From a virus (lineage: Duplodnaviria; Heunggongvirae; Uroviricota; Caudoviricetes): a stretch of DNA of 15,064 nucleotides. Below the pieces are notes generated by a model, which was not told the origin of the DNA, ran no database searches, and saw nothing but the letters and a program-made list of their open reading frames with translations. The DNA lies in the IMG/VR virus record IMGVR_UViG_2778261705_000029; one strand, given 5' to 3'. Positions 1 through 13,696 of this stretch are shown piece after piece; positions within the stretch are counted from its first letter, which is position 1, and each line of letters begins with the position of its first letter. The position numbers and the translations under genes were made by a program.

Positions 1-600
<600 letters not shown>

Positions 601-649
601 AGGCATTTCGTCATCTCTCACCTCGCGATATTTGCGGGTGCTGTGTTGG

Positions 650-675
650 AAATAAAAAGGCCACGCAACGTGGCC
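650..675 (-). terminator. Rho-independent terminator downstream of the methyltransferase fragment
   Basis: 7-bp GC-rich stem ggccacg/cgtggcc (659-665 / 669-675) with 3-nt loop; on the minus strand it is followed by a T-rich run (complement of aaataaaaa, 650-658). Confidence 0.55.
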
Positions 676-742
676 ACCAGAATTATTTCCCCACCAGTTC
701 ACTTACCTCTTTCACCGTCTGATTAAACCGCTCTGACTCAAG

Positions 743-1057
743 TTAAACACCTAACGCCCGACGCCCCAGCGCCATTGCTGCTTTTATTGTGGAACCGAAT
801 CCCATAAAGAAATCAGCAACCAGATCACCAGGTCGACTACTGGCATTGATTATTTGCCTGAGCATATCCGCCGGTTTCTCGCACGGATGTTTACCCGGGT
901 AGAACTGAACGGGCTTATGCGTCCTGACATCGGTATAAGGCACGGAGACTGATACGGAGAAATAGCGCCGGTGAGATTTAAACTCATCCAGCAATTCAGA
1001 AGATTTGCAATTCAGTGAATCATGAGATACCACCAACTGGTGGTAGGATTGTCTCAA
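743..1057 (-). pseudogene. C-terminal fragment of a DNA (N6-adenine/N4-cytosine) methyltransferase, 5'-truncated
   Basis: The C-terminal ~60 aa (HPCEKPADMLRQIINASSRPGDLVADFFMGFGSTIKAAMALGRRALGV) resemble the C-terminal SAM-binding region of YhdJ-like DNA methylases (HPTQKP ... DPFxGSGTT pattern). The ORF begins with a TTG and has no catalytic (D/N)PPY region; upstream is AT-rich unrelated sequence. Confidence 0.45.
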
Positions 1058-1226
1058 CTAGTGAGCTTTATACATTTAAGTGCGATGCACAGATAATAAC
1101 CACGCCAATGGAATATCACACACAAAATTGATAGAACACTAACAATAAGCCACAAAATAATTCACAATTTATTTTTACAGTGGATAAGTAGCAAAGTAGT
1201 GAATGTGAATAACGGCTAACTAAGAT

Positions 1227-1256
1227 GAAACAAAAAGCCCCACAATATGTGGGGCT
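1227..1256 (-). terminator. Rho-independent terminator after the 61-aa gene
   Basis: 9-bp stem agccccaca/tgtggggct (1236-1244 / 1248-1256) with 3-nt loop; on the minus strand followed by tttttgtttc. Confidence 0.6.
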
Positions 1257-1314
1257 CCTTCGCGATTTATAGTAAAATAATCGATTCTCTAGCTGAAAAA
1301 ATCTTTAAAAATTA

Positions 1315-1500
1315 TCAGCAATACGCAAGTTTTTTACCGTCATCCGGTACTAGTTTGATCACTACACCAGGATTCTTACGCTCTAACATCTGAGTTTGAC
1401 TCCATGTAATACCAAAGGTTTCCATTGGAGATGCATTGCCAGCAAAGAGTTCGGCGACGACTTTAGCTGCCTCAATCTCTATCTGCTCATGATGTTTCAT
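1315..1500 (-). CDS. Hypothetical small protein (61 aa), part of AT-rich cargo
   Basis: ATG at 1498-1500 preceded by AAGGGGA Shine-Dalgarno about 7 nt upstream; the longer ORF start at 1548 has no RBS. Terminator immediately downstream. No family recognised. Confidence 0.45.
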   Translation of the reverse strand: MKHHEQIEIEAAKVVAELFAGNASPMETFGITWSQTQMLERKNPGVVIKLVPDDGKKLAYC

Positions 1501-1691
1501 AAAAATCCCCTTGTTCAGCACTAAGCTGTAGTTGCTTCTTTGAAGCATAAAGGCAACAAAGTTTGTTACCTGAAGATGTATAAAGTAAAGCGTAGTACAT
1601 TTTGTGTGTGCTTTGTGTGGATCCAGATTGCATCAACTAAAAGAGGTTTTCAATACTTTTGTAATGATTCTGGAGAAATTAAGAATCTAAC

Positions 1692-2234
1692 TCACACTGA
1701 TTGGTTAGGTAAAACGCTCCTAAGCACCATTGCGCAACCACCTCGTTCGTAATCAGCAATGTACTCAAAACCACTTTCAGTATAGTATCTTATTGCCCCA
1801 TCAACTGGACTAACTAAAGCTATCGAATCAATAGATTCACCCTGAAGGTTCAGAAATCGTGCATATGCAGAGAAGCAATCCAAAACGATACCAAGCATCT
1901 GATGGTCTAGGTCTTCATGTGCATCATTACGTTTTTCCATCCAGCAAATATGCACCGCATTTTTCGGCTTACAGTAACACCCAAATGCAAATCCAATAGG
2001 CTCCCCACGATAATAAACAACTAGTTTTATCGGGTTTTCTTCCATCATATCCATAAACACTCGCGACTTTAGTCCGGGATCCCACCGCAGTTTATTGTTA
2101 GCCTTGAGGAACTCCATATCTTTTAGTACCAGCTCGTCGGCATATACGAGCCCTAACGACTTATGAGGGAAGCGCCCTTTTAAATACTCTGCAACATTTT
2201 TAAATACTGCTGTTTGGAAGGCTTGAAACATCAT
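1692..2234 (-). CDS. GNAT-fold-like acyl/acetyltransferase candidate (180 aa), AT-rich cargo gene at the late-gene position
   Basis: 180-aa ORF in a clearly AT-rich stretch. The C-terminal segment AIRYYTESGFEYIADYERGGCAMVL resembles GNAT motif B and YYRGEPIGFAFG is a possible acyl-CoA-binding loop. Start codon uncertain (weak RBS at 2234). Family call is low confidence. Confidence 0.4.
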   Translation of the reverse strand: MMFQAFQTAVFKNVAEYLKGRFPHKSLGLVYADELVLKDMEFLKANNKLRWDPGLKSRVFMDMMEENPIKLVVYYRGEPIGFAFGCYCKPKNAVHICWMEKRNDAHEDLDHQMLGIVLDCFSAYARFLNLQGESIDSIALVSPVDGAIRYYTESGFEYIADYERGGCAMVLRSVLPNQSV

Positions 2235-2312
2235 GTCGATCCAGACGAGACGAAAGTTTAAATTCTACCTACTCGCCGAATACCATTTCAATGCCACACA
2301 TCTAAAATTCCG

Positions 2313-2340
2313 AAAAAAAACCCGCACATCAGCGGGTTTT
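2313..2340 (-). terminator. tR'-like rho-independent terminator downstream of the late promoter
   Basis: Stem cccgc/gcggg (2321-2325 / 2332-2336) extended by A:T pairs; on the minus strand followed by 8 consecutive U (complement of a-run 2313-2320). Only 4 T follow it on the + strand. Confidence 0.7.
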
Positions 2341-2385
2341 CTACTTTTTATTAAAGCCGGACACACAATGCCTATCATTGAGAAA

Positions 2386-2414
2386 ATATTATCCATTTTT
2401 TTTGAAAAATGCAA
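2386..2414 (-). promoter_or_regulatory. pR'-like sigma70 late promoter downstream of the Q-like gene
   Basis: On the minus strand: -35 TTGCAT (complement of 2409-2414), 17-nt spacer, -10 TAATAT (complement of 2386-2391). Predicted start near 2379 gives a ~65-nt transcript ending at the 2313-2340 terminator, the classic Q-antiterminated pR'/tR' arrangement. Confidence 0.5.
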
Positions 2415-2445
2415 GCATCATGTCGCCATTTTCGTCGAAAATCAT

Positions 2446-3198
2446 TCATCTCGTCACTTTCCTCAATTGTGTCTCAGCATACGCTTCTTCCTGCCAGCAC
2501 TTTGTAACCAGTTTATCAATGACATCTGCATATCCTTTGTACCACTGATAATCCGTCAGGTCTGGTACCAGCTTCTGGACATGAAGCCGCGCCAGTGTGG
2601 TTGGTAAACGGCTAAACCGGTTTCCATTGCAACGCCCACAAACCTTATAAACAGGCGTGCCATGAAGCCTGGTTCTTTTTTCATCCAGGACAATACCTTT
2701 ACCCTTACACCCTCTGCACGCTGTGCTGACTTCTCCCTTACCATGACAATGCTGACACAGTTCCTTCACCCACTCTTCCTTGATAACAGATTCCCCGCTT
2801 CTGGAGTGTTTCACCACCTCGCGCAATACATCATGAAATCCAGTACCAGCACAATGCTCACAGCGAGCCTTACTTGCCGCAGACCTGGAATAATCAGCAA
2901 AGGCAAAATTCACAAGGTAAGGAATGATCTGTAGCCGGGTTTCTTCACTCAATTTGTTCAATGTCGGGTTATCCAGTGCCATCGCGTAATTGAGCAGACC
3001 TTCAATCGCAAACTGAGGATCCTGAACACCAACTTTTGCCAGGAATAAGGCAAACCCAAGCGGTGCTTTCGACTGCACCATCCCCTGCGCAGCCATTACA
3101 TCCGTAATTGTTAAACCACCAGAGCCTGTCGCCGGTGCGTCATCGCTCAATTTTGGAGATTTTGGGGAGTAATATTTCGGTAAGGCTTCAAAGTTCAT
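2446..3198 (-). CDS. Q-like late antiterminator candidate (250 aa) with DnaJ-type CxxCxGxG zinc-finger repeats
   Basis: ATG at 3196-3198 with GGAG RBS. Last gene of the early-right operon, immediately upstream of the pR'/tR'-like unit. Contains CEHCAGTG, CQHCHGKG, CRGCKGKG and CGRCNGNR. Length and position match my recollection of Qin-prophage QuuQ. Confidence 0.5.
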   Translation of the reverse strand: MNFEALPKYYSPKSPKLSDDAPATGSGGLTITDVMAAQGMVQSKAPLGFALFLAKVGVQDPQFAIEGLLNYAMALDNPTLNKLSEETRLQIIPYLVNFAFADYSRSAASKARCEHCAGTGFHDVLREVVKHSRSGESVIKEEWVKELCQHCHGKGEVSTACRGCKGKGIVLDEKRTRLHGTPVYKVCGRCNGNRFSRLPTTLARLHVQKLVPDLTDYQWYKGYADVIDKLVTKCWQEEAYAETQLRKVTR

Positions 3199-3211
3199 GC
3201 TCGTTCTCCAC

Positions 3212-4207
3212 TTACGCCAGTACGCCTATTGCCAGCGCACGATCGATAAAACGAAATATCAGCTCCAGCTGGGAGCCATACTTCTCTTCAAATGCCACGG
3301 TATCCGCATGCAGCTCGTCGTGATGCTTTCTGCACAAAGGCAACACAAAGAGGTCATGCGCTTTTGTACCCATTCCTCCCTGACCGTGACCTATCAGGTG
3401 GTGGGGATCATCAGCAGGCTTTCCACAACATGCACACGGCTGTGTCTTAACCCAGCGCGTGTACTTTTCATTAACCCAGCGGCGACGTTTTGGGCGTAAC
3501 ATAAAAGACTCCGGCGACTCAGGATCCACTTTCAGCGCCAGCACCTTTTTCGCTTTATCCTGGATGATGCTGGTGGCAGGAACCGAAGGCACAAGGTCAC
3601 TTTCCCGGGTAACAGACGGCACAACAGGCTTCGGTAATCTAAGTGCCTTACGGGCTGCACTTTCCGGTAAGGCATCCGCCAGGTCATTACGAATCAGCCA
3701 CCAGCACAGTTCCGGCATTGTCACAACGTGACTGTCATCAAAACCGAGATCCCGACGCACAACAGACAACACCCAGCGGGCACAGTTATCCGTTGCCATT
3801 GATTCCAGCCGTTCCGTGAACTGATCGCGCAGCTGGTTATCGCAGTGCCAGCACAGACGGATTGCGCCCGGAGCGTGTCGCATTGTGGTCATGTTCTCGC
3901 TGTGCCAGTCGGAATGAGGCCACTGGCAGCCTTTTTCACGAAGTAACCAGCTTTCAAGACATTCCACGCCACCAGCACGACGGATCACTGCCTCATTGCG
4001 GAACACGGCCCGAACGGCAGGATCATCCGCCAGCGGTTGTGATGCCGCCGGAACGGCACCACTGGCGAAAGATGAATAACGTTCCGGCTCAGGCTCCAGC
4101 AGGACACGCCCCTGCATAAACAGGGGCATCAGCTCTGAACCTGGCCTGAACAATACGATCCCCATACGCGGGGCAATTTCAGGAGTCAGTAGTGCTCTCA
4201 CGGTCAC
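3212..4207 (-). CDS. DUF968/YdfU-like prophage protein with C-terminal HNH-like Cys/His motif
   Basis: 331-aa ORF with GTG start at 4205-4207 directly after the upstream stop. C-terminus CACCGKPADDPHHLIGHGQGGMGTKAHDLFVLPLCRKHHDELH is an HNH-like metal-binding motif. Position upstream of Q matches my recollection of ydfU in Qin. Confidence 0.5.
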   Translation of the reverse strand: MTVRALLTPEIAPRMGIVLFRPGSELMPLFMQGRVLLEPEPERYSSFASGAVPAASQPLADDPAVRAVFRNEAVIRRAGGVECLESWLLREKGCQWPHSDWHSENMTTMRHAPGAIRLCWHCDNQLRDQFTERLESMATDNCARWVLSVVRRDLGFDDSHVVTMPELCWWLIRNDLADALPESAARKALRLPKPVVPSVTRESDLVPSVPATSIIQDKAKKVLALKVDPESPESFMLRPKRRRWVNEKYTRWVKTQPCACCGKPADDPHHLIGHGQGGMGTKAHDLFVLPLCRKHHDELHADTVAFEEKYGSQLELIFRFIDRALAIGVLA

Positions 4208-4208
4208 C

Positions 4209-5018
4209 TCAATGAACGGTATCGAGCAGCTTTAACAGCTCAGGGAATCGGGATTCGAAGAAATGCGGCTGCGTCTCGCGCGGATTTGCGGGACTGGTGA
4301 TGTTCTTGCCGAACATGCAGCCTTTCGCTGTCAGCGACCAGAATTTTTTGATGTTGTTAATCGCAGTGCGGCTGTATCGTTCACGTTGTTCAACGATCCC
4401 CAGCTTCGCCATCTGGTGATATGCCTGATTAGCTGTCAGGCGGATACCATACTGCTTCAGCAGTGCACTCAATGATAGCGTGGGGCGGCTTGAGCCATCA
4501 GGCGCGTCAGCAGGAGCATCAATGGCATAGCGCGGTGCCAGATTCGGTAAGCCAACAGCCTCCTGGAGTTTCTGACAGGCACCAAGCACTGAAGAGTTAG
4601 ACAGGTTTAACTCCCGGCGCATAAAGTCCAGCAGGATCACGCCAGCCTGCATCTTGTCAGCAGCCTGTCCGGATAATTTTTCCGGTGCGCTGGTTACCAT
4701 ATCGAAAGTACGGATCACCTTCAGATGGAATGACGGGCTGATCCACATTGCATAGGCATACACCAGTTCCTTGCAGACATACGTTCCCCGTTCATTTCCC
4801 CCATGAATCACACTCACCGGGTCAACACCCAAATTCTGGGTGTTGGTCAATTCATGAACAAGCTCAACAGTTTGTTGGCTGGAAAGAAACTTTCCCGGCT
4901 CCTTGGTTCTGGCATTTGCACCAGATGCTACTGCTGCGCGATGCAGATCGTTCAGGCTGTAACGCCCATAAGCATCACGACGAACTTCAATACCATCAAT
5001 GACCATCAGATTATTCAT
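4209..5018 (-). CDS. KilA-N domain protein (269 aa)
   Basis: ATG at 5016-5018 with AGGAG RBS. N-terminal ~100 aa (VIDGIEVRRDAYGRYSLNDLHRAA ... HGGNERGTYVCKELVYAYAMWISPSFHLKVI) fits the KilA-N/APSES-type DNA-binding domain. Confidence 0.65.
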   Translation of the reverse strand: MNNLMVIDGIEVRRDAYGRYSLNDLHRAAVASGANARTKEPGKFLSSQQTVELVHELTNTQNLGVDPVSVIHGGNERGTYVCKELVYAYAMWISPSFHLKVIRTFDMVTSAPEKLSGQAADKMQAGVILLDFMRRELNLSNSSVLGACQKLQEAVGLPNLAPRYAIDAPADAPDGSSRPTLSLSALLKQYGIRLTANQAYHQMAKLGIVEQRERYSRTAINNIKKFWSLTAKGCMFGKNITSPANPRETQPHFFESRFPELLKLLDTVH

Positions 5019-5037
5019 ACTTCGTTTCTCCTCTTAA

Positions 5038-5427
5038 TCAGGCGGCTGCACCCGCCGTTTTCTCGTACTTACTGATAGTGATCTCGACCTTCCCTTCCGG
5101 GATAACCGGTCCCCACTCCACCAGCATTCTTTTCACCTGACTGTCGTCTTCCCACACACCCGCGTGGGTCAGGGCGTCAAACAGCGCCTTGTTATAGTTG
5201 TCCAGATCGCGGATCCGGTTATCCGGAGGAAACAACACGATCTCCACTGAAGCAGGTGCCGACGTTGGTTTCGGCAGACGACGTAACTGCTCAACTATTG
5301 CTGCGCACGCCGCGCTCTGGAATTTTCGCCCCGCCGCGCTTATCAGGCTCTTACCAGCAAACGCCCCTTTGTTGGGGTGTCGCCAGTACGTGTTCACGCT
5401 GGGCGGAAAAGGCAGGATCAGCTTCAT
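5038..5427 (-). CDS. rusA: RusA-family Holliday-junction resolvase
   Basis: 129-aa protein with the RusA pattern (LPFPPSVNTYWRH ... RDLDNYNKALFDALTHAGVWEDDSQV). Start ATG 5425-5427 overlaps the upstream stop (ATGA coupling). Confidence 0.85.
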   Translation of the reverse strand: MKLILPFPPSVNTYWRHPNKGAFAGKSLISAAGRKFQSAACAAIVEQLRRLPKPTSAPASVEIVLFPPDNRIRDLDNYNKALFDALTHAGVWEDDSQVKRMLVEWGPVIPEGKVEITISKYEKTAGAAA

Positions 5428-5750
5428 ACTTTCAGGTCCCTCTCATGTAACCAGTGGGTTGCACGCAGCCTTGCGTTTTCCTCACCGGCAAGCAGTGCGC
5501 GGATAATCCCGACCGCCTCGCTGTCGTCGTCCTTCACCGCGATATGAAGCGTTATCCCCCGGGCCACGCCACGCTTTATCGTGATGACGCCTTTTTTCTC
5601 CAGTGCGCGAAGATGCTCCACCGCTGCATTCACTGAACGGTATCCCAGCATGGTTGCCACCTCCTGATTGGTTGGCGGGAAGCCACGTTCTTTCTGATAA
5701 GAAATCAGCATATCCAGCACCTGCTGCTGGCATTGAGTTAACGTCGTCAT
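5424..5750 (-). CDS. LexA N-terminal DNA-binding-domain homolog lacking the S24 peptidase domain (108 aa)
   Basis: Residues 1-70 align with the E. coli LexA winged-helix DBD, including the recognition-helix region (LexA RSPNAAEEHLKALARKGVI vs here RSVNAAVEHLRALEKKGVI). No Ser/Lys peptidase domain follows. ATGA coupling with the upstream methyltransferase gene. Confidence 0.7.
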   Translation of the reverse strand: MTTLTQCQQQVLDMLISYQKERGFPPTNQEVATMLGYRSVNAAVEHLRALEKKGVITIKRGVARGITLHIAVKDDDSEAVGIIRALLAGEENARLRATHWLHERDLKV

Positions 5751-6400
5751 GCCGCCATCTCCCTGACCAGTTTTTCTGCCTGCTGGCGAACCTGCGCCAG
5801 AAAGGCCTCACCACATGCCTCAAGTTCATAGCGCCCGATGTAGCTGATTGCCGGTCCCTTCCAGGTCTTGTCGAAAACAGCAATAGCACCAGCGAAGAAA
5901 GCGCCTGTCGGCACCTGCTTCTCATCCTTCGGGATAAACCAGGCAGGCAGTTCAAAACCAATACGCCCGCGAATAAAAGCAATATGATCTGCATCTTCCG
6001 GCCACCACACTTCGCTGGTGGCAGCTTTGATCAGGAAAACATAGCGCCCGCCTTTATCACGCATGGCACTGGCATGCTTCATGATGTAACGCATGCCGGT
6101 GATGTATTGCCCCTCATGCTGACTGGCGCGGCTGTATGGGGGATTACCAAAGGCAGCACCTTTAAGCTCCGCAAGACGTTCTGACCAGTCATGCGCCAGC
6201 GCGTTGTCTTCCGCAGTGTAATAAGCGGCACATTTGGCGTTATCACCGTCAGTGAACAGATCCAGAACAAACGGGCCAAACAGGGTGTTAATTCCCCAGA
6301 AAATGTTGTCCGGCGTGCGCCACTGATCGCCCACTTCCTTCAGTTCATGGGCTGGTTTGTTCCGCAGCTCCACCAGCGCCTGGCAATATTTATTACTCAT
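5747..6400 (-). CDS. Phage Dam-like N6-adenine DNA methyltransferase
   Basis: Catalytic NPPY motif (GNPPYSR) and a DLFTD-type SAM-binding region. Start ATG 6398-6400 overlaps the upstream stop (TAATG); an in-frame alternative start lies at 6433. Confidence 0.75.
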   Translation of the reverse strand: MSNKYCQALVELRNKPAHELKEVGDQWRTPDNIFWGINTLFGPFVLDLFTDGDNAKCAAYYTAEDNALAHDWSERLAELKGAAFGNPPYSRASQHEGQYITGMRYIMKHASAMRDKGGRYVFLIKAATSEVWWPEDADHIAFIRGRIGFELPAWFIPKDEKQVPTGAFFAGAIAVFDKTWKGPAISYIGRYELEACGEAFLAQVRQQAEKLVREMAA

Positions 6401-6888
6401 TAAGCCCCCACGTAATTCCCTGACAGATACCACTCTTCACCCGATACAGCGCGCTTGCTGCTTTTCCGTAAGCACCGCTCACAACGCGCCAGAAAATTGT
6501 TTCGTTCTGGCTGGGAGTGGCTTTCACGGAATGCCGCCATCCACACCGTTGCAGCACGACGGTATAAGCCCCTGGACTCCAGTTCTTCAGCCTGGCGGGT
6601 CAGGCACAAAATCACCCGGGGATCGTTAGTGCCGACATAGAAATTGCGCACAGGTCTGGTTTCACGAACTGGTTGTGGTTCCGGCTCCTGCGCTCTCTCA
6701 GTCAGGCGCGGGAAATGTCTGCGTGTATCCCCTTCACAACGGTGAGCCACACGCCCACTCTGACGTAACTTGCTTGCAGACTGCAGAACGCGCTGCCGTG
6801 AGTAACCTGCAAAAGCATCCGCAATGTCTCCGGAAGTACAGCCCGGATGGGCTTCAATGAATTTCTGAACGTCATTCAAAAGACTCAT
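6400..6888 (-). CDS. Hypothetical prophage protein (162 aa) downstream of the replication initiator
   Basis: ATG at 6886-6888, 2 nt after the O-like gene stop; the track's start at 6894 is a GTG. No Walker motif, so not a DnaC/helicase-loader type. No family recognised. Confidence 0.5.
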   Translation of the reverse strand: MSLLNDVQKFIEAHPGCTSGDIADAFAGYSRQRVLQSASKLRQSGRVAHRCEGDTRRHFPRLTERAQEPEPQPVRETRPVRNFYVGTNDPRVILCLTRQAEELESRGLYRRAATVWMAAFRESHSQPERNNFLARCERCLRKSSKRAVSGEEWYLSGNYVGA

Positions 6889-6890
6889 GC

Positions 6891-7832
6891 TCACCCCCTG
6901 AATCCTGCCGGGATCTGGCTGTAGTCCACGTTGTCGTAACTGGCTTTGAAGTACGGGTCCTCGCGTTTTTCGGTGTACGTGCTGACGGACGGCGATAAGC
7001 GCAGGGAAAGCTCATCCCATTTTTCCCGCAGCTTCGACGGGCTGAGCACGTTACGGCACCAGAACGGATCGCGACTGACGCGGCTGTACATCTCGCAGAT
7101 TTGTTTATGAGTACGACCATCCTGCACACACATCAGGCGAATTTCGTTTGCCCAGGCTGTCCAGTTCGGTTCTTTGGGACGAACCACCTCGCCGTCACAT
7201 TCGGCGGCATGCTCGTACAGGGCGATGATTTTTTTCCAGAGCCACTGTGCACAGGTCAAATCATCCTGCGTCCCCCACTGGCGCTTTTTAGGGCTGAATA
7301 CAACCGCATCAGGATGGCGAGTTAAAAAATCCTGTTCATCCGTCTGCGTGTCCGGTTGCGAAGCGTCCGGACGAGAAGGTTTTTTATCTGACGGATCATG
7401 TTTTGATTTTACTGACGGATCCCCGCCAGATTCTGACGGGTGAAAACCCGCTTTTTTGCCAGATTTCGACGCATCAAATTTTGACGGGTCAGATTTTGAT
7501 GCGTCAGATTTTGACGGGTCAGAATCTGACAGTTGAGAAAATGCCGCTGCCTGAAGCTTCGCAACGTTAAGCTGATAAACATTCGACGCATTGCGGTTAC
7601 CCTGGCGACGCGCCTTACGCGTTAACCAGCCTTCTGCTTCCAGCCGTGCGATAGCCGTTCTGACGGTGCTCATCCCCGCGCCAATCTGGCGGGCAATGGT
7701 TTCAATTGATGGCCAGCACACACCTTCGTCATTACTGAAATCAGCCAGGCGGGCCATAATTGCCACGCTGGATAACTTCATGCCTGACGCAGCGCAACCA
7801 TCCCATACATAGCCGGTTAATTTAGTGCTCAT
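6891..7832 (-). CDS. Lambda O-like replication initiator (replisome organiser) with internal origin iterons
   Basis: ATG 7830-7832 with GAGG RBS. N-terminal winged-helix region (MSTKLTGYVWDGCAASGMKLSSVAIMARLADFSNDEGVCWPSIETIARQIGAGMSTVRTAIARLEAEGWL) typical of phage replication initiators; a repetitive D/S/K linker is encoded by the DNA iterons. Confidence 0.7.
   Translation of the reverse strand: MSTKLTGYVWDGCAASGMKLSSVAIMARLADFSNDEGVCWPSIETIARQIGAGMSTVRTAIARLEAEGWLTRKARRQGNRNASNVYQLNVAKLQAAAFSQLSDSDPSKSDASKSDPSKFDASKSGKKAGFHPSESGGDPSVKSKHDPSDKKPSRPDASQPDTQTDEQDFLTRHPDAVVFSPKKRQWGTQDDLTCAQWLWKKIIALYEHAAECDGEVVRPKEPNWTAWANEIRLMCVQDGRTHKQICEMYSRVSRDPFWCRNVLSPSKLREKWDELSLRLSPSVSTYTEKREDPYFKASYDNVDYSQIPAGFRG
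7385..7530. repeat. Origin-of-replication iterons embedded in the O-like gene
   Basis: At least seven direct or inverted copies of a TCTGACGG(G/A)TCA-type motif (tctgacggatca, ctgacggatcc, tctgacgggtga, ttttgacgggtcagatt twice, tgatgcgtcag twice). Confidence 0.65.
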
Positions 7833-7841
7833 GACCGACCT

Positions 7842-8180
7842 CTATTTCCCTGAATTTACGACGAAACTGTTCGAGCGGGCTGAAGCACTCATGCTCATAG
7901 CCTTCGCGGAGGTAGATAACCCGTTGTGTTTCCGGTTCCCAACGAATGACTCTGACGGGCACTCCGTAGTGATCTTTGAACCAGCGGTTAACTTGTCGCA
8001 AAGGACTGTCTCCTTTTGCCTGTTGAAATCACCCACAGCCCACTCTGCAAAGCTGTGGGTTACAATTTCCCTGTCACCTGGTACATTCACTGCATAGCAA
8101 TACTCCACCTTCGCTTTTCCACCCGGTACAGGAAGTGCAATCAGTTGCGAGCGACGGTAGTGTGTTGTTAAACTGTTCAT
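7842..8180 (-). CDS. Hypothetical protein between the CII-like gene and O (extent uncertain)
   Basis: ATG 8178-8180 overlaps the upstream stop (ATGA). The N-terminal ~68 aa look protein-like, the C-terminal third is Ser-rich and low complexity. A + strand ORF (7831-8097) overlaps it, so the true coding frame is unresolved. Confidence 0.35.
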
Positions 8181-8728
8181 GCGTTAGTTTCTCCACAGTC
8201 ACGACACGCCACGGCGCCCGGAGCTGCACACTCGCGGGCGTCATTACTTTCTGAAATGCAAAAAATTTTGTAGACCAGTGCTGCATGCTCCTGCAGCTTC
8301 GAAATTGAGAGGTACAGCTCGTCGTTAATTGCTGTCTTCTCATGCGGTTCCACTACACCGTCTTCAATTGCTGAACGAATCTGTTTTGAATAACTGCCGA
8401 TCTGTTCAATGACCTCCAGCAGGCGTTGGTTGATATCGGCGTTGTCCACATCCTCGACATCAGGAAGAGACACAAAGACGCCATTTGCAGACTGCGCCAC
8501 AGCGTCAGCAATGAAGTGAGTTCCACCAGCACGTTGCAAAATCATTGCCCATCCCAGCGGGAAAATCTGATCGCCATCGGCACGAAGGCGGTTAAATAAT
8601 GCGTTCTCTGTTACATCCAGCCAGTCAGCAGCTTCAGCGTACCCCCCCGGCAACGCTGCGATAGTTTTTCTGACAGCTTTCACGTACCACTCAGGCTGTT
8701 TTTCTACTTTCCAGTGATGCTTACCCAC
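8177..8728 (-). CDS. CII-like regulator candidate (YdaT/CP76-type, 183 aa)
   Basis: GTG start 8726-8728 with strong AGGAGG RBS, overlapping the last codons of cro. Position directly after cro is the cII/YdaT slot. The family call rests on position and general resemblance only. Confidence 0.45.
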
Positions 8729-8981
8729 GGTTCACCTCCTGTTCCTGTGGTTTAAACCCATTCTGGTTTTGGCTAGATTGAAAACGTGCCGGATAAAGAA
8801 TCTGCATTTCGCTGACTTCACCCTTAAAAAAATTGGCTAAACGTTCTGCAAGCTCGATAGATGGAATCTGCTCCAGCCTCTCAATACGACTCAACGTCGC
8901 TGGATTGACTTGAACACCCGCAGCAACATGCTGCAAAGTGAAACCATGCGCCTTACGCACATTTCGTAATGGTGATTGCAT
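8721..8981 (-). CDS. cro: Cro-like HTH (XRE-family) repressor
   Basis: 86-aa helix-turn-helix protein (FTLQHVAAGVQVNPATLSRIE) transcribed divergently from cI; ATG 8979-8981 with GGAGGG RBS. Confidence 0.75.
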   Translation of the reverse strand: MQSPLRNVRKAHGFTLQHVAAGVQVNPATLSRIERLEQIPSIELAERLANFFKGEVSEMQILYPARFQSSQNQNGFKPQEQEVNRG

Positions 8982-9078
8982 ACGCCCTCCAAATATTGCG
9001 CGTTATGCATGTTATTTCACGCAATTATTTTGCGCAAGTTGATTTGCTTATCACGCAATAAAGAAATGTAATAAACGC
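8982..9078. promoter_or_regulatory. OR-like divergent promoter/operator region (pR for cro, pRM-like leaderless promoter for cI)
   Basis: TTGC-N7-GCAA-type sites at 8996-9010 (TTGCGCGTTATGCAT) and 9044-9058 (TTGCTTATCACGCAA), plus palindrome CGCAA-N5-TTGCG at 9020-9034. Candidate pRM: -35 TTGCTT 9044-9049, -10 TGTAAT 9067-9072, with the cI ATG at 9079 and no Shine-Dalgarno. Candidate pR on the minus strand: -35 TTGCGC, -10 TAACAT. Confidence 0.55.
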
Positions 9079-9771
9079 ATGAACATAGGAAACCGAGTCA
9101 GACAACTTCGCCAAGCGAAGAACATGAAAATCGCCGATCTCGCTGAAGCGATAGGAGTAGATGCGGCGAACATCTCGCGCTTAGAAACGGGTAAGCAAAA
9201 ACAATTTACCGAACAAACACTGAGTAATATTGCCAAGAGCTTAGGTGTTGATATTGCTGATCTCTTTACCTCTGCCCACAAAAGTAATACTGTATATAAA
9301 AACAGTAATAATGAGGATGTTGCGCAGGTGAAGGATGTGTTCCGTATTGAAATGCTGGATATCAGTGCCAGTGCGGGAAATGGCCTTATCCAGGGCGGTG
9401 ATGTCATTGATGTGATTCATGCCATCGAATACAGAACTGATAATGCTGTATCAATGTTCGGCGGACGACCAGCCAATCACATCAAAGTTATCAACGTTCG
9501 TGGGGACAGTATGTGTCCAACCATTGAGCCAGGAGATCTCATCTTCGTTGATGTCAGCATCAATCAGTTTGATGGTGATGGTATATATGTCTTTGGTTTT
9601 GATGACAAAATATACGTTAAAAGACTTCAAATGATTCCTGACAAACTGCTGGTGATTTCTGATAACCAGATTTACCGTGAATGGGGAATTACTAGCGAAA
9701 ACGAACACCGATTCATGGTCTTTGGAAAGGTCTTAATCAGTCAGTCGCAAACCCTTAAGAGACATAATTAA
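9079..9771 (+). CDS. cI: CI-like prophage repressor (N-terminal HTH plus C-terminal S24 LexA-like autopeptidase domain)
   Basis: N-terminal XRE HTH (VRQLRQAKNMKIADLAEAIGVDAANISRLETGK) and C-terminal S24 peptidase with the Ser nucleophile in GDSMCPTIEPGDLIFVD and the Lys in VKRL. Divergent from cro. Confidence 0.85.
   Translation: MNIGNRVRQLRQAKNMKIADLAEAIGVDAANISRLETGKQKQFTEQTLSNIAKSLGVDIADLFTSAHKSNTVYKNSNNEDVAQVKDVFRIEMLDISASAGNGLIQGGDVIDVIHAIEYRTDNAVSMFGGRPANHIKVINVRGDSMCPTIEPGDLIFVDVSINQFDGDGIYVFGFDDKIYVKRLQMIPDKLLVISDNQIYREWGITSENEHRFMVFGKVLISQSQTLKRHN
9288..9307. promoter_or_regulatory. Near-consensus LexA/SOS box inside the cI coding sequence
   Basis: TACTGTATATAAAAACAGTA against consensus TACTGTATATATATACAGTA: CTGT-N8-ACAG with TA flanks and an all-A/T spacer. 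It is the only CTGT-N8-ACAG I found scanning the window by eye. Lies in the linker-coding part of cI. Confidence 0.55.
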
Positions 9772-9791
9772 CCTCAATATCCCATCCATCG

Positions 9792-9812
9792 GCCACCGAA
9801 AGGTGGCTTTTT
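9792..9812 (+). terminator. Rho-independent terminator immediately downstream of cI
   Basis: Stem gccacc/ggtggc (9792-9797 / 9802-9807), GAAA tetraloop, then TTTTT (9808-9812). Confidence 0.7.
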
Positions 9813-9825
9813 ATTACCTATAAAT

Positions 9826-9876
9826 TTGCATATCTCGCAAATACCACTTGCATATCTCGCAATTTAATTTTATCTT
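9826..9876 (+). promoter_or_regulatory. OL/pL-like operator-promoter: two perfect 15-bp TTGCATATCTCGCAA repeats overlapping a sigma70 promoter
   Basis: Identical repeats at 9826-9840 and 9848-9862, same TTGC-N7-GCAA pattern as the OR sites. -35 TTGCAT 9848-9853, 17-nt spacer, -10 TATCTT 9871-9876, oriented toward the genes on the + strand. Confidence 0.55.
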
Positions 9877-10069
9877 TTATTCCAGACCAACTACAGGATT
9901 ACAACAAAATCTGGTTGCAACACGGTGCATGTGTCGTAAGCAGTCAGTAAATGTCAAAAACGAACAGGCAGGACGCCCACGAAGTAGCCGCCTGGGGCAT
10001 ATGAAGTCCAGGATGATTCGTTGAGTCATGTTGTGCCACTAGGCACTCATGTTAAAGCAGGTGTATGAA

Positions 10070-10345
10070 ATGAAAGTCCAGATTTTAAACAATAACTGTG
10101 AAGTCGTTTGGTCATACGACATAGCCGCCCCTGTAGATCAGAGCGGCGATAGCTGGACCAATGGGAAACATCAGATTATGGCTGGAGTTGTGTTCTCTTT
10201 ACGCCGTGCTTTAGAACAGGCTGAAGTCTTTCCATCAGACCCTGAATGGAAATGGCCTTTTTCTATTTGTCCAAATTCGGAGAGTACATTTCAGAAAATT
10301 GGTCAGAAAGTCGCACTCGAAGAGCATCAGCCAACTGTTTCCTGA
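10070..10345 (+). CDS. Hypothetical protein (91 aa), first gene of the pL-like operon
   Basis: ATG 10070-10072 with AGGTG RBS 6 nt upstream. Not arginine-rich, so not an obvious N homolog. 3' end overlaps the convergent minus-strand gene by 83 bp. Confidence 0.45.
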   Translation: MKVQILNNNCEVVWSYDIAAPVDQSGDSWTNGKHQIMAGVVFSLRRALEQAEVFPSDPEWKWPFSICPNSESTFQKIGQKVALEEHQPTVS

Positions 10346-10508
10346 TTTTTTCAGGTAACTCGTCGGCATCGCAGAAACAACAACGCTCGATCATGTTGAA
10401 AGCCGATTCGTAGAACTGTTTTTGCTGAGTGTCGCTGAGACAGGAAAAGAGCGACGTTACGATGATTTTATTAATTGCATTATCAAGTTCTTTTTCATCA
10501 AAAGTCAT
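10263..10508 (-). CDS. Hypothetical protein (81 aa) convergent with and overlapping the pL-operon first gene
   Basis: ATG 10506-10508 with AAGGAAAA RBS about 7 nt upstream. Contains a CCFC motif. No family recognised. Confidence 0.45.
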   Translation of the reverse strand: MTFDEKELDNAINKIIVTSLFSCLSDTQQKQFYESAFNMIERCCFCDADELPEKIRKQLADALRVRLSDQFSEMYSPNLDK

Positions 10509-10762
10509 TTGATTTTCCTTTTATGTATACGGGCTTAAAAGGATACCACCGAGCCTGAAGTGGTGAAAAGACAGGCACATAACAGCTAAGTATTTTCAAC
10601 CAGAGAGAATCCTTAGCGTTGTGGTGAATGCGGCTCAGCGCACGCGGGTTAAGGTTGAGGCTGACAGTCGACCTTCTGTGGATACCCACCCGCCTGGTGT
10701 GCAACCTTCGCCAGGCACCGGGAGGCACCCGGCACCACAACTTTATGCTGTGTGTAGTCTTA

Positions 10763-10808
10763 GCGGTACCAGCTTGTACCCTTGCTTCCGGCTGGTACCG
10801 TCCTTTTT
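10763..10808 (+). terminator. Terminator-like hairpin (10-bp stem, 17-nt loop, T-run) inside the non-coding island
   Basis: cggtaccagc (10763-10772) pairs with gctggtaccg (10790-10799), followed by tcctttttac. Confidence 0.4.
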
Positions 10809-10897
10809 ACAAAACAGAGAAGAGCATCACCGGACGACGGGCTCATAACCCAATCCATCCGGGCGGCTGCCACCGCAGGTGTTCTTCTCTGTTTTGT
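10809..10897. repeat. Long perfect inverted repeat (15 bp arms, 59-nt structured spacer); candidate structured RNA or cis element
   Basis: acaaaacagagaaga (10809-10823) is the exact reverse complement of tcttctctgttttgt (10883-10897); a further cacc/ggtg pairing lies inside. The region has no credible ORF. Confidence 0.5.
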
Positions 10898-11021
10898 GGA
10901 GAAACTAACCGCCCCTACGGGGGCATTTATGGAAATGTAATTGACTCAATAATCGCCGGACGGTGAGGGCTTCCTTTTACCCGAATTCAGCGCGGTGCAG
11001 CGCATATACGTGGAGAACAAA

Positions 11022-11558
11022 ATGTCATTTATTAAAACTTTTTCCGGGAAGCATTTTTATTATGACAGGATAAATAAAGACGACATCGTTATTAACGATA
11101 TCGCGGTTTCCCTTTCAAATATCTGTCGCTTTGCAGGACATCTTTCACACTTCTACAGTGTCGCCCAACATGCGGTGCTTTGCAGCCAGCTGGTGCCACA
11201 GGAATTTGCTTTTGAAGCTTTAATGCATGATGCAACAGAAGCATATTGCCAGGACATCCCCGCACCACTGAAACGACTTCTTCCTGACTATAAACGGATG
11301 GAAGAAAAAATAGACGCCGTAATACGTGAGAAATACGGGTTACCTCCTGTTATGAGCACGCCAGTGAAATATGCCGATCTCATTATGCTGGCAACCGAAC
11401 GCCGCGATCTCGGGCTTGATGATGGCTCTTTCTGGCCTGTACTGGAAGGTATCCCGGCAACAGAGATGTTCAAAGTGATTCCACAGGCACCGGGCCATGC
11501 CTACGGGATGTTTATGGAACGTTTTAACGAGTTATCGGAGTTACGCAAATGCGCATGA
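11022..11558 (+). CDS. yfdR: HD-domain phosphohydrolase, YfdR-like (178 aa)
   Basis: ATG 11022-11024 with GGAG RBS; the track's 10995 start is a GTG without RBS. HD motif region (HFYSVAQHAV ... MHDATEAY). Lengths 178/120/101 aa for this and the next two genes match my recollection of yfdR-yfdS-yfdT in the CPS-53/KplE1 prophage. Confidence 0.6.
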   Translation: MSFIKTFSGKHFYYDRINKDDIVINDIAVSLSNICRFAGHLSHFYSVAQHAVLCSQLVPQEFAFEALMHDATEAYCQDIPAPLKRLLPDYKRMEEKIDAVIREKYGLPPVMSTPVKYADLIMLATERRDLGLDDGSFWPVLEGIPATEMFKVIPQAPGHAYGMFMERFNELSELRKCA

Positions 11559-11911
11559 ATGTTTTCGAAATGGAAGGGTTTCTTCGTGGGAGATGTGTAC
11601 CGCGAGATCTGAAAGTGAATGAAACAGATGCTGAATACCTGGTGCGTAAATTCGATGCGCTTGAAGCTAAATGTGCAGCACAGGAAAACAAAGTAATACC
11701 AGTGTCAACTGAACTGCCACCAGCAAATGAAAGTGTTTTGTTATTCGATGCTAACGGAGAAGGCTGGCTAATTGGCTGGCGTTCTCTCTGGTACACCTGG
11801 GGACAAAAAGAAACCGGAGAATGGCAGTGGACATTTCAGGTCGGGGACCTTGAAAACGTCAATATCACTCACTGGGCAGTAATGCCAAAAGCACCGGAGG
11901 CTGGAGCATAA
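11549..11911 (+). CDS. Hypothetical prophage protein, YfdS-like by position and length (120 aa)
   Basis: ATG 11549-11551 with GGAG RBS 8 nt upstream; overlaps the upstream stop. Confidence 0.5.
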   Translation: MRMNVFEMEGFLRGRCVPRDLKVNETDAEYLVRKFDALEAKCAAQENKVIPVSTELPPANESVLLFDANGEGWLIGWRSLWYTWGQKETGEWQWTFQVGDLENVNITHWAVMPKAPEAGA

Positions 11912-12216
11912 TGACCACTTTTACCGACAAAGAACTGATTAAAGAAATTAAAGAGCGTATCAGCAGCCTTGACGTGCGAGACGATATTGAGCGCCGTGCT
12001 TATGAAATCGCACTCCTATCTCTGGAAGTAGAACCAGATGAACGCGAAGCTTATGAATTATTCATGGAAAAGCGTTTCGGTGACTTAGTAGATCGTCGGA
12101 GAGCAAAAAACGGCGATAACGAATACATGGCATGGGATATGACTCTCGGTTGGATCGTCTGGCAGCAACGAGCAGGTATCCATTTTTCAACAATGTCACA
12201 ACAAGAGGTGAAATAA
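11911..12216 (+). CDS. Hypothetical prophage protein, YfdT-like by position and length (101 aa)
   Basis: ATG 11911-11913 overlapping the upstream stop (TAATG), preceded by GGAGG. Confidence 0.5.
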   Translation: MTTFTDKELIKEIKERISSLDVRDDIERRAYEIALLSLEVEPDEREAYELFMEKRFGDLVDRRRAKNGDNEYMAWDMTLGWIVWQQRAGIHFSTMSQQEVK

Positions 12217-12566
12217 TGGAGCCATACAGCCTCACACTCGATGAGGCCTGTCATTTTCTCAAGATATCCAGACCGACTGCCATTAACTGGATACGCACAG
12301 GGCGTCTTCAGGCAACACGCAAAGATCCCACTAAGAATAAATCTCCTTACCTCACAACACGACAAGCCTGCATTGCGGCTCTTCAGTCTCCGCTGCATAC
12401 TGTCCAGGTGAGCGCGGGTGATGGCATAACAGAGGAAAGAAAATGTCACTCTTCCGCAGAGGTGAAATATGGTACGCCAGTTTCACATTGCCGAACGGTA
12501 AAAGATTTAAACAGTCTCTTGGAACAAAGGACAAAAGGCAGGCGACAGAACTCCATGACAAGCTAA
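12216..12566 (+). CDS. xis: Excisionase (Xis-like winged-helix); 3' end uncertain because the frame overlaps int
   Basis: ATG 12216-12218 with AAGAGGTG RBS and TAATG coupling. N-terminus [38 protein letters not shown] has the Xis/AlpA-like pattern. The frame runs to 12566, 124 bp into int. Confidence 0.55.
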
Positions 12567-13606
12567 AGGCTGAAGCATGGCGGGTCAGCAAACTTGGTGA
12601 AATACCTGATATAACGTTCGAGGAAGCGTGTGTCAGGTGGCTTGAAGAGAAAGCACATAAAAAATCGCTGGACGATGACAAAAGCCGGATCGGATTCTGG
12701 CTTCAACATTTCGCAGGAATGCAACTAAGAGACATTACTGAATCAAAAATTTATTCAGCAATGCAGAAAATGACGAACCGGCGTCATGAGGAAAACTGGA
12801 AACTCAGGGCAGAAGCATGCAGAAAAAAAGGGAAACCTGTTCCAGAATACACGCCAAAACCAGCGTCCGTTGCAACGAAGGCTACGCATCTTTCATTTAT
12901 AAAGGCCCTACTAAGAGCCGCAGAGCGTGAATGGAAAATGCTGGATAAGGCACCAATTATTAAAGTGCCTCAACCAAAGAATAAACGGATCCGCTGGCTG
13001 GAGCCCCATGAAGCACAAAGGCTGATTGATGAATGTCCGGAGCCATTAAAGTCTGTTGTTGAATTTGCACTGGCAACAGGCTTAAGACGCTCGAACATCA
13101 TCAACCTTGAATGGCAACAAATAGATATGCAGCGCCGGGTGGCATGGATAAACCCGGAAGAGAGTAAATCAAACCGCGCAATTGGCGTTGCGCTGAATGA
13201 TACTGCATGTCGCGTATTGAAAAAACAAATCGGGAATCATCACCGTTGGGTATTTGTGTACAAGGAAAGCTGTACCAAACCAGACGGAACGAAAGCGCCA
13301 ACAGTAAGGAAGATGCGGTATGACGCAAACACAGCCTGGAAAGCGGCGCTGAGACGGGCTGGTATTGATGATTTCAGATTTCACGACTTGAGACACACCT
13401 GGGCAAGTTGGCTGGTTCAAGCCGGAGTCCCGTTGTCAGTGTTACAGGAAATGGGAGGCTGGGAGTCTATCGAAATGGTTCGTCGATATGCTCACCTTGC
13501 ACCTAATCACCTTACCGAACACGCACGGCAAATAGACTCGATCCTGAACCCATCGGTCCCAAATTTGTCCCAGTCAAAAAATAAGGAAGGTACTAATGAT
13601 GTGTAA
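12443..13606 (+). CDS. int: Tyrosine site-specific integrase (lambda-family)
   Basis: 387 aa, AGAGGA RBS 6 nt upstream. C-terminal catalytic motifs HDLRHTWAS and VRRYAHL (Tyr nucleophile). Directly adjacent to the tRNA 3' end. Confidence 0.9.
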
Positions 13607-13620
13607 CTTATTGATTTTAA

Positions 13621-13696
13621 TGGTGCCGATAATAGGAGTCGAACCTACGACCTTCGCATTACGAATGCGCTGCTCTACCAACTGAGCTATATCGGC
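13621..13696 (-). tRNA. thrW: tRNA-Thr (anticodon CGU)
   Basis: 76-nt reverse complement gccgatatagctcagttggtagagcagcgcattcgtaatgcgaaggtcgtaggttcgactcctattatcggcacca: 7-bp acceptor stem, anticodon loop TTCGTAA, T-loop GGTTCGA, encoded CCA end. Immediately downstream of proA. Confidence 0.85.

Follow-up and report, generated by a model that had tools for sequence, protein, structure and literature searches.

A convergent, 3'-overlapping pair of small genes in a variable cargo slot of an SfV-like Escherichia coli prophage

The prophage, its immunity region and the gene pair

The stretch of DNA analyzed here (15,064 nucleotides, the window from now on) is 100% identical to the sequence of E. coli O157:H7 strains such as FRIK2455. 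It carries an SfV-like prophage integrated beside tRNA-Thr(CGT) and proA and extending over positions 550-13620, with a left end that appears truncated. At this left edge there is an ORF on the + strand (25-543) whose translation, on our reading of the sequence, resembles the catalytic C-terminal portion of a transposase of the IS3 family. In Sakai (O157) this tRNA (thrW) is occupied by another prophage, the lambda-like Sp1, so that the published transcriptome and ribosome-profiling data of EDL933 and Sakai do not cover the locus of the convergent pair.

The features of the region are collected in Table 1. The repressor gene is labeled as an XRE family regulator by PGAP and as cI in the SfII record, and the terminator that follows it is annotated at the equivalent position in the records of SfV and SfII. 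Besides the two exact operators, the pattern search gave two degenerate copies between cro and cI (8996-9010 and 9044-9058). The hexamers of a putative pL overlap the CI operators, which points to an early-left operon running on the + strand with the convergent pair at its head. An earlier reading made from the sequence alone (the sequence-only reading) had placed the pair at the head of a pL-like operon, and this was borne out, CI, its terminator and both exact operators being found directly upstream.

Table 1. Position of the features described in the text, in window coordinates.
Feature	Position	Strand	Details
cro-like gene	8721-8981	-	
CI-type repressor	9079-9771	+	Pfam Peptidase_S24 (6e-19), HTH_3/HTH_26
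Intrinsic terminator 3' of cI	9791-9808	+	GGCCACCGAAAGGTGGCT then TTTTATT; terminator scan
Operator, two exact copies	9826-9840, 9848-9862		15 bp, TTGCATATCTCGCAA; pattern search
Putative pL	-35 TTGCAT 9848-9853; -10 TATCTT 9871-9876		17-nt spacer; hexamers read by eye; overlaps the operators
Leader element	9955-10030	+	Core GGCAGGACGCCCACGAAGTAGCCGCC at 9967-9992; between pL and the + gene, ~75 nt
+ gene	10070-10345	+	91 aa; PHROG 3195; SfV orf33; WP_021563905.1; first gene of the putative pL operon
The - gene	10263-10508	-	81 aa; PHROG 3311
3' overlap of + and - genes	10263-10345		83 nt; ORF-list coordinates
Putative promoter block of the - gene	10540-10577	-	Conserved across genera
STnc100/PasD-like structured RNA region	10588-10810	+	Rfam RF02076
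int	12443-13606		Right end of the prophage
tRNA-Thr(CGT)	13621-13696		Adjoins int; proA next

The ORF coordinates and the sequence confirm the tail-to-tail arrangement first described, an 83-bp overlap between a 91-aa (+) and an 81-aa (-) gene that are each preceded by a Shine-Dalgarno sequence. These are AGGTG at 10059-10063, 6 nt before the ATG at 10070, and AAGGAA on the - strand (10520..10515), 6 nt before the ATG at 10508. The ORF list allows a 98-aa version of the + ORF starting from an upstream ATG at 10049; the start at 10070 (MKVQILN...) is the one kept in all the homologues of the + protein. Coordinate arithmetic indicates that within the overlap codon position 1 of the + gene faces position 1 of the - gene, whereas positions 2 and 3 face positions 3 and 2 respectively, so that substitutions silent for one gene are not so for the other. 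In the + protein, the conserved core comprises residues 1-84 (ending in ...VALE) and only ~59 nt of the 83-nt overlap (10263-10321) fall on it.

The + protein matched phrog_3195 from end to end (3.8e-65, or 6.4e-70 for the 98-aa form) and the - protein phrog_3311, also end to end (3.1e-55), both families being labeled as of unknown function. These PHROG matches stand alone. Nothing significant was found for either protein in Pfam, NCBIfam or PADLOC, PDB profile searches gave only E > 0.5, and there was no match to a characterized family or fold, in agreement with the sequence-only reading, which had recognized no family in either of them. Both are predicted to be soluble (GRAVY -0.2 to -0.6). 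The - protein is acidic (pI 4.3-5.3 across the family) and its AlphaFold model (pLDDT 78.5) has three helices, at residues 5-22, 26-46 and 53-75. A CCxC motif in this protein was considered as a metal site and rejected, the cysteines not being conserved in distant homologues. For the + protein (pI 4.95) four short strands followed by two helices are predicted, in a model that is unreliable (pLDDT 47.8) and too poor for a structure search.

Selection on the two reading frames and on their overlap

Judging from the available annotation, only one of the two ORFs would be a gene and the other a spurious antisense ORF. The RefSeq PGAP annotation includes the + ORF alone, the - gene lacking a PGAP annotation in RefSeq E. 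coli genomes; the SfV record annotates orf33 alone; and gene callers took just one of the two ORFs in most of the diverged loci. Both ORFs are annotated in two recent phage records. We compared the window with the diverged loci by Nei-Gojobori counts of pS and pN, with a Fisher test and a six-frame control. In the + frame, codons 1-64 gave pS values of 0.79-0.86 versus pN values of 0.18-0.26 (Fisher p 1e-14 to 5e-9), and in the - frame codons 1-62 gave 0.70-0.92 versus 0.20-0.26 (p 8e-15 to 2e-6). The two annotated frames were the only ones that paired the lowest pN/pS (0.21-0.38) with zero stops, the other five frames having 2-11 stops and pN/pS of 0.40-5.4. The codon-aligned antisense frame, where a lowered ratio is expected opposite a constrained gene, gave 0.40-0.53 with 3-6 stops, and the frames left over ~0.6-5.4 with 2-11 stops. 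Besides, both ORFs were intact in 36 of the 39 distinct alleles found at 159 IMG/VR loci, scans that returned near-identical copies only, were used for polymorphism counts and include many contigs that appear twice.

The low pN and the lack of stops in both annotated frames lead us to reject the idea of a spurious ORF. Purifying selection acts on the non-overlapping part of each ORF (pN/pS ~0.2-0.4, with p values as low as 1e-14); for each of them homologues were found down to ~26-50% identity, and there is a separate PHROG family. The one-gene explanation is effectively refuted by the six-frame selection tests, and we give it a minimal chance. Lack of conservation or of a coding signature in either ORF had been chosen beforehand as the outcome that would tell against the pair; both ORFs proved to be conserved and both carry the mark of purifying selection. 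By these substitution patterns, both are genuine genes under purifying selection at the protein level.

The overlap behaves differently from the genes. Its length varies among loci from 83 to 197 nt, with 110 nt in L177/178 and 197 nt in L179/180. Past residue 84, the + ORF meets a stop after 7 codons in E. coli and after 38 codons in other genera, and in this tail pS was 0.12-0.19 versus a pN of 0.33-0.40 (pN/pS 2.3-4.2). By this measure the distal + tail is a passive, unselected antisense frame opposite the constrained - gene. We also simulated random synonymous recoding of the - gene and scored the openness of the + frame, which stayed open at least as long in ~80% of the trials (P about 0.8); selection for keeping the long + ORF open was rejected on these grounds. 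The variable length, the passive tail and this P value together indicate that the figure of 83 nt is incidental and that overlap length is not selected. What is kept in every pair, by coordinate arithmetic, is a shared overlap of ~38-71 nt between the stretches that encode the C-terminal helix region of the + protein and the last helix of the - protein. In the overlap stretch pS is roughly equal to pN in both genes (0.26-0.49), the picture of relaxed evolution. Residues 75-81 of the - protein are polymorphic, missing in other lineages or of low confidence in the model.

With no selection on its length, the overlap may itself be incidental, and the locus might then consist of two independent small genes that merely abut, with an orientation and overlap of no regulatory consequence. 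The range of overlap lengths would be explained in this way, as would the pN/pS of the + tail past codon 84, which is that of an unselected antisense frame, the recoding trials and the state of the last - residues (75-81). Yet the conserved C-terminal helix region of the + gene overlaps the 3' end of the - gene in every pair, convergent transcription from a pL located ~650 bp away is geometrically unavoidable, and the same overlapping tail-to-tail layout recurs in the slot with unrelated cargo (see next section). On balance we consider the independence of the two genes somewhat unlikely.

Distribution of the pair and contents of the slot

The pair is carried by ~7-10% of the complete E. coli genomes (404-551 of 5,426). 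Homologues of the + protein are found in Klebsiella, Salmonella, Yersinia and metagenomic phages with identities of 42-62% in a seven-sequence alignment, and a diverged copy (P0040) has 64%. The - protein has relatives of 56-64% identity in the same three genera and of 26-50% in metagenomic phages. Its family is very small, a set of 1.84 billion proteins containing 20 representatives of it, and a scan of the GTDB species representatives gave no relatives. The convergent overlapping pair appears in the window and in loci L004-7, L171-176, L177/178, L179/180 and L183, and every locus fetched for the forms of Klebsiella, Salmonella and Yersinia had the two genes in a convergent and overlapping arrangement. 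The distance from start to start is 439 nt in the window, L004 and L171-176 and, by arithmetic on the ORF coordinates, 439 in L177, 445 in L179 and ~436 in L183. In L177/178 the neighbors of the pair are a lysis cassette and a Fic/Phd module, in L179/180 a CI-like repressor and in L183 HigBA.

Such joint travel, to at least three contexts (the pL head, the lysis cassette and HigBA), with a nearly invariant start-to-start spacing, could mean that the two proteins form an obligate pair in function, such as an early protein that is toxic or directed at the host and its neutralizer, or a sensor with its effector; the overlap would then lock joint inheritance. Among the sequenced phages with either gene (SfV, 720R4 and SKA5) both always co-occur, and no case of a + gene without the - gene was found among the loci examined. 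Against this, L182 has a homologue of the - gene alone, between Q and holin and antisense to the late operon, and no + homologue, while in L181 an intact - gene is found beside a stop-interrupted C-terminal remnant of the + gene. The solitary gene in L182 and the decayed one in L181 indicate, at the level of gene content, that the pair is not obligate. Neither protein has similarity to toxin or antitoxin families or to PADLOC models. Pairs in which toxin and antitoxin are both proteins are not typically convergent. What was found here departs from a type II system in the convergence of the genes and in the lack of a match in Pfam, PADLOC or PDB, and from a type I system in that both partners are conserved soluble proteins with both frames under protein-level selection. 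We therefore regard an obligate pair as unlikely. The expectation that the pair would be conserved as a unit in related prophages held in that both genes are found together in several genera and contexts, and failed in that the association is not obligate (L182, L181) and the length of the overlap is not conserved.

Remnants of the cassette are also found. In some E. coli genomes, represented by L008 (NZ_CP098210.1) and H82-H86, a truncated phage tail gene has become fused through a deletion to most of the - gene (window 10307-10545). The resulting 95-aa ORF, WP_000141754.1, is what remains of the cassette in a prophage that has been rearranged.

The pair is flanked by two conserved non-coding elements. 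Upstream, the core of the leader element is nearly invariant among pL leaders that have otherwise unrelated flanks and immunity regions. We found the element in 51 phage records, none of them with an RNA or regulatory annotation and a few with a hypothetical CDS overlaid on it. Its carriers include SfII, SfV, SfIV, ST64B, mEp460, mEp237, SPN3UB, ZF40, YeP2 and even phages of Providencia and Aeromonas. It is single-copy in the window and had no match in Rfam. It is predicted to fold into a hairpin, in which one C>U variant retains a G-U pair on the + strand. In a Yersinia prophage the element is found 3' of the gene pair instead of 5'. Two candidate identities were discarded: a HK022 put site, since the HK022 early region that contains put gave no sequence match to the element, and a small arginine-rich ORF, which in L173 has an in-frame TAG directly upstream. 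As a guess, the element could serve as a signal for antitermination or processing.

On the other side, beyond the putative promoter block, the region 10588-10810 matched RF02076 (STnc100) with 43 bits over the full model (E 1.1e-7), which is below the gathering score of 47; background on the STnc100/PasD family is given in bioRxiv 10.64898/2026.05.13.724894. The STnc100-like RNA lies within a wider conserved region (10531-10990) that is GC-rich (53%). A 1.2-kb query that includes it (9780-11000) matched 2,823 of the 5,426 complete E. coli genomes, versus 551 with the pair. PGAP annotates here a frameshifted hypothetical CDS and the SfII record a 112-aa ORF, and in both cases a structured RNA akin to STnc100/PasD has probably been mistaken for a coding sequence.

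What is located between these flanks varies from phage to phage. SfV, 720R4 and SKA5 have the pair studied here. The SfII-type (L003/L009) has a 63-aa - gene and a 68-aa + ORF with an overlap of 39 nt; SfIV and Kati (L185/L186) have a 144-aa - gene and a 68-aa + gene that overlap by 29 nt; e14 (L010) has ymfJ/ymfI, with 63 nt of overlap; and ST64B (L187) has little or nothing, no gene being annotated there. None of the other cargo proteins (SfII-type, SfIV/Kati, e14) had a match in Pfam or PADLOC. SfII-type prophages retain just the first ~100 nt of the + gene, followed by a stop, with a recombination junction within the gene. From these comparisons of gene content, the cargo located between leader element and promoter block is interchangeable and often takes the form of convergent pairs that overlap at their 3' ends. 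The sequence-only reading had taken the position as the one where lambdoid phages carry N or exclusion/anti-defense cargo; related phages do have variable cargo there, but we saw no sign of an N-like, exclusion or anti-defense activity.

Transcription signals, proposed expression and known architectures

The putative promoter block of the - gene consists of a -35 TTCACC (10567..10562) and an extended -10 TGgTATCCT (10548..10540), with the inverted repeat ACCAC/GTGGT located in the 16-nt spacer between them. Its consensus, TGCCTGTCTTTT(C/A/T)ACCAC-loop-GTGGTAT(C/A)CT, is nearly invariant upstream of the - gene and is kept in the E. coli, Klebsiella, Salmonella and Yersinia loci and in L177 and L179. 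In Yersinia and L177 the sequence and length of the loop are altered, with the inverted repeat, the TGn (TGnTAnnnT) and a workable spacer retained. An identical block is found upstream of the unrelated 63-aa gene of SfII (L009 ~3442-3550) and of ymfI in the e14 element of K-12 (L010 ~5390-5497), and the pattern search of the window gave no CI operator near it. Since the block is conserved, is shared with unrelated cargo and has no CI operator, we infer that it is a CI-independent sigma-70 promoter that would drive whichever cargo gene occupies the slot. A simple promoter scan gave it 8 of 12 hexamer matches, versus a threshold of 9, and left it uncalled. As the inverted repeat is preserved where the loop differs, it might also function as an operator or, in the pL transcript, as an RNA hairpin.

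The putative pL and the putative promoter of the - gene face each other ~650 bp apart. Neither the terminator scan nor the comparison of leaders gave a conserved intrinsic terminator 3' of the - stop codon, the sole candidate being a weak hairpin with a T-run (9980..9964) that is not conserved elsewhere. A large part of the + gene, if not all of it, is probably traversed in antisense by the - transcript. In the SfV record (U82619.2) a putative rho-independent terminator is annotated at 25034-25066 (~window 10496-10528), on the start codon and Shine-Dalgarno of the - gene; our terminator scan gave no + strand terminator at ~10496-10528.

Taken together, these data are consistent with a two-gene accessory cassette that occupies a variable cargo slot at the head of the pL operon and whose expression would be reciprocal through convergent transcription, a proposal to which we give about an even chance. 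The + gene would be the first to be transcribed from a CI-repressed pL, so that the lysogen would not express it and infection or induction would turn it on. With a predicted extended -10 sigma-70 promoter of its own, free of CI operators, the - gene could be expressed from the repressed prophage, and in the lysogen its transcript would extend antisense into the + gene. After derepression, strong transcription from pL would collide with, and be antisense to, the - gene. The outcome would be transcriptional interference of the excludon type and reciprocal expression, as expected when transcription units converge and the 3' ends of the coding sequences overlap. We infer the activity of the promoters, the reciprocal expression and the timing of each protein from the arrangement of signals in the DNA. 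Our best guess is that the - protein is an accessory factor expressed in the lysogen and able to work alone, and the + protein a factor of the early lytic phase.

In favor of the accessory cassette, unrelated cargo appears in the same slot again as convergent overlapping pairs (29, 39 and 63 nt), and the - gene of L182, alone and antisense to a late operon, fits an autonomous, self-promoted cargo gene. On the other side, the - promoter falls below the scan threshold, there is no convincing - terminator and neither protein has a functional homologue. Mutually exclusive expression, suggested in the sequence-only reading, is plausible because the - gene appears to have its own conserved promoter facing pL and because the positional analogue ymfI-ymfJ is listed as a convergent excludon.

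The e14 element of K-12 provides the closest parallel in layout. There ymfJ is the first gene after a CI-like repressor (ymfK/cohE) in the same slot, ymfI is convergent with it, with a 63-nt 3' overlap, and the block upstream of ymfI is identical to that of the studied - gene. In contrast, YmfJ and YmfI have no detectable sequence similarity to the proteins of our pair, and homology between them was rejected. The pair ymfI-ymfJ is listed among the convergent excludons found by K-12 RNA-seq (PMC12288877), in an excludon list where sieB-ydaF of Rac appears too, and ymfJ goes up ~4-5 log2 late in the SOS response, ymfI much less (PMC11002266). These RNA data support the expression logic for the positional analogue ymfJ/ymfI, not for the locus studied here.

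Phage lambda has a related arrangement in N and sieB, where the first gene of pL is faced by a gene of opposite orientation that has its own promoter and is expressed from the prophage. The same opposition, by a putatively self-promoted gene, is apparent in the window, as it is in sieB-ydaF of Rac. However, the proteins are of a different kind. Reading of the + protein gave no arginine-rich motif at its N-terminus (MKVQILNNNCEVVWSYD...) or any other N-like feature, it had no match to a characterized family, and no boxA/boxB consensus was seen in the pL leader on an informal reading. SieB-type proteins are membrane proteins, while the - protein is acidic and soluble and has no match to PF14163. 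Besides, lambda N and sieB abut without overlap, and the genes studied here overlap. As for the excludons, the likeness lies in convergent genes on opposite strands whose transcripts would have to overlap, one of them under a putative strong, switchable promoter. The cassette also resembles a moron, or lysogenic-conversion cassette, in that it varies between flanks that are conserved, lies antisense to the operon that hosts it, is present only in some of the related phages and has a putative promoter, and the - gene is found also in the cargo slot between Q and holin. Differences from morons are that no dedicated terminator for the cassette was found in the window and that its GC content is just slightly under the prophage average (42% vs 48%). 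The architecture is already known in kind (e14 ymfJ/ymfI, lambda N/sieB, excludons, morons), and the studied locus is a new member.

A more ambitious scheme would see a modular antisense cargo slot in which interchangeable convergent gene pairs are framed by a conserved leader RNA and by the extended -10 promoter with an adjoining STnc100/PasD-type sRNA. The pair would then act as a module coupled to lysogeny and lysis, for example a prophage defense or exclusion factor and an early counter-factor of the phage, made mutually exclusive by the convergent overlap. We consider this very unlikely.

A direct consequence of these results is a correction of the annotation, a conserved - gene being missing from the RefSeq records of hundreds of E. 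coli genomes, while the distal part of the long + ORF in other genera is revealed by its substitutions as a passive antisense frame. The pair marks a hotspot of recombination and cargo at the pL head of SfV-, SfII-, SfIV- and e14-type prophages, framed by two strongly conserved non-coding elements and repeatedly holding convergent pairs with 3' overlaps. If the reciprocal expression proposed here is true, the locus would offer a natural and compact case of control by promoter collision linked to the lysis-lysogeny switch, and the slot would be a place to seek new accessory or defense functions of prophages.
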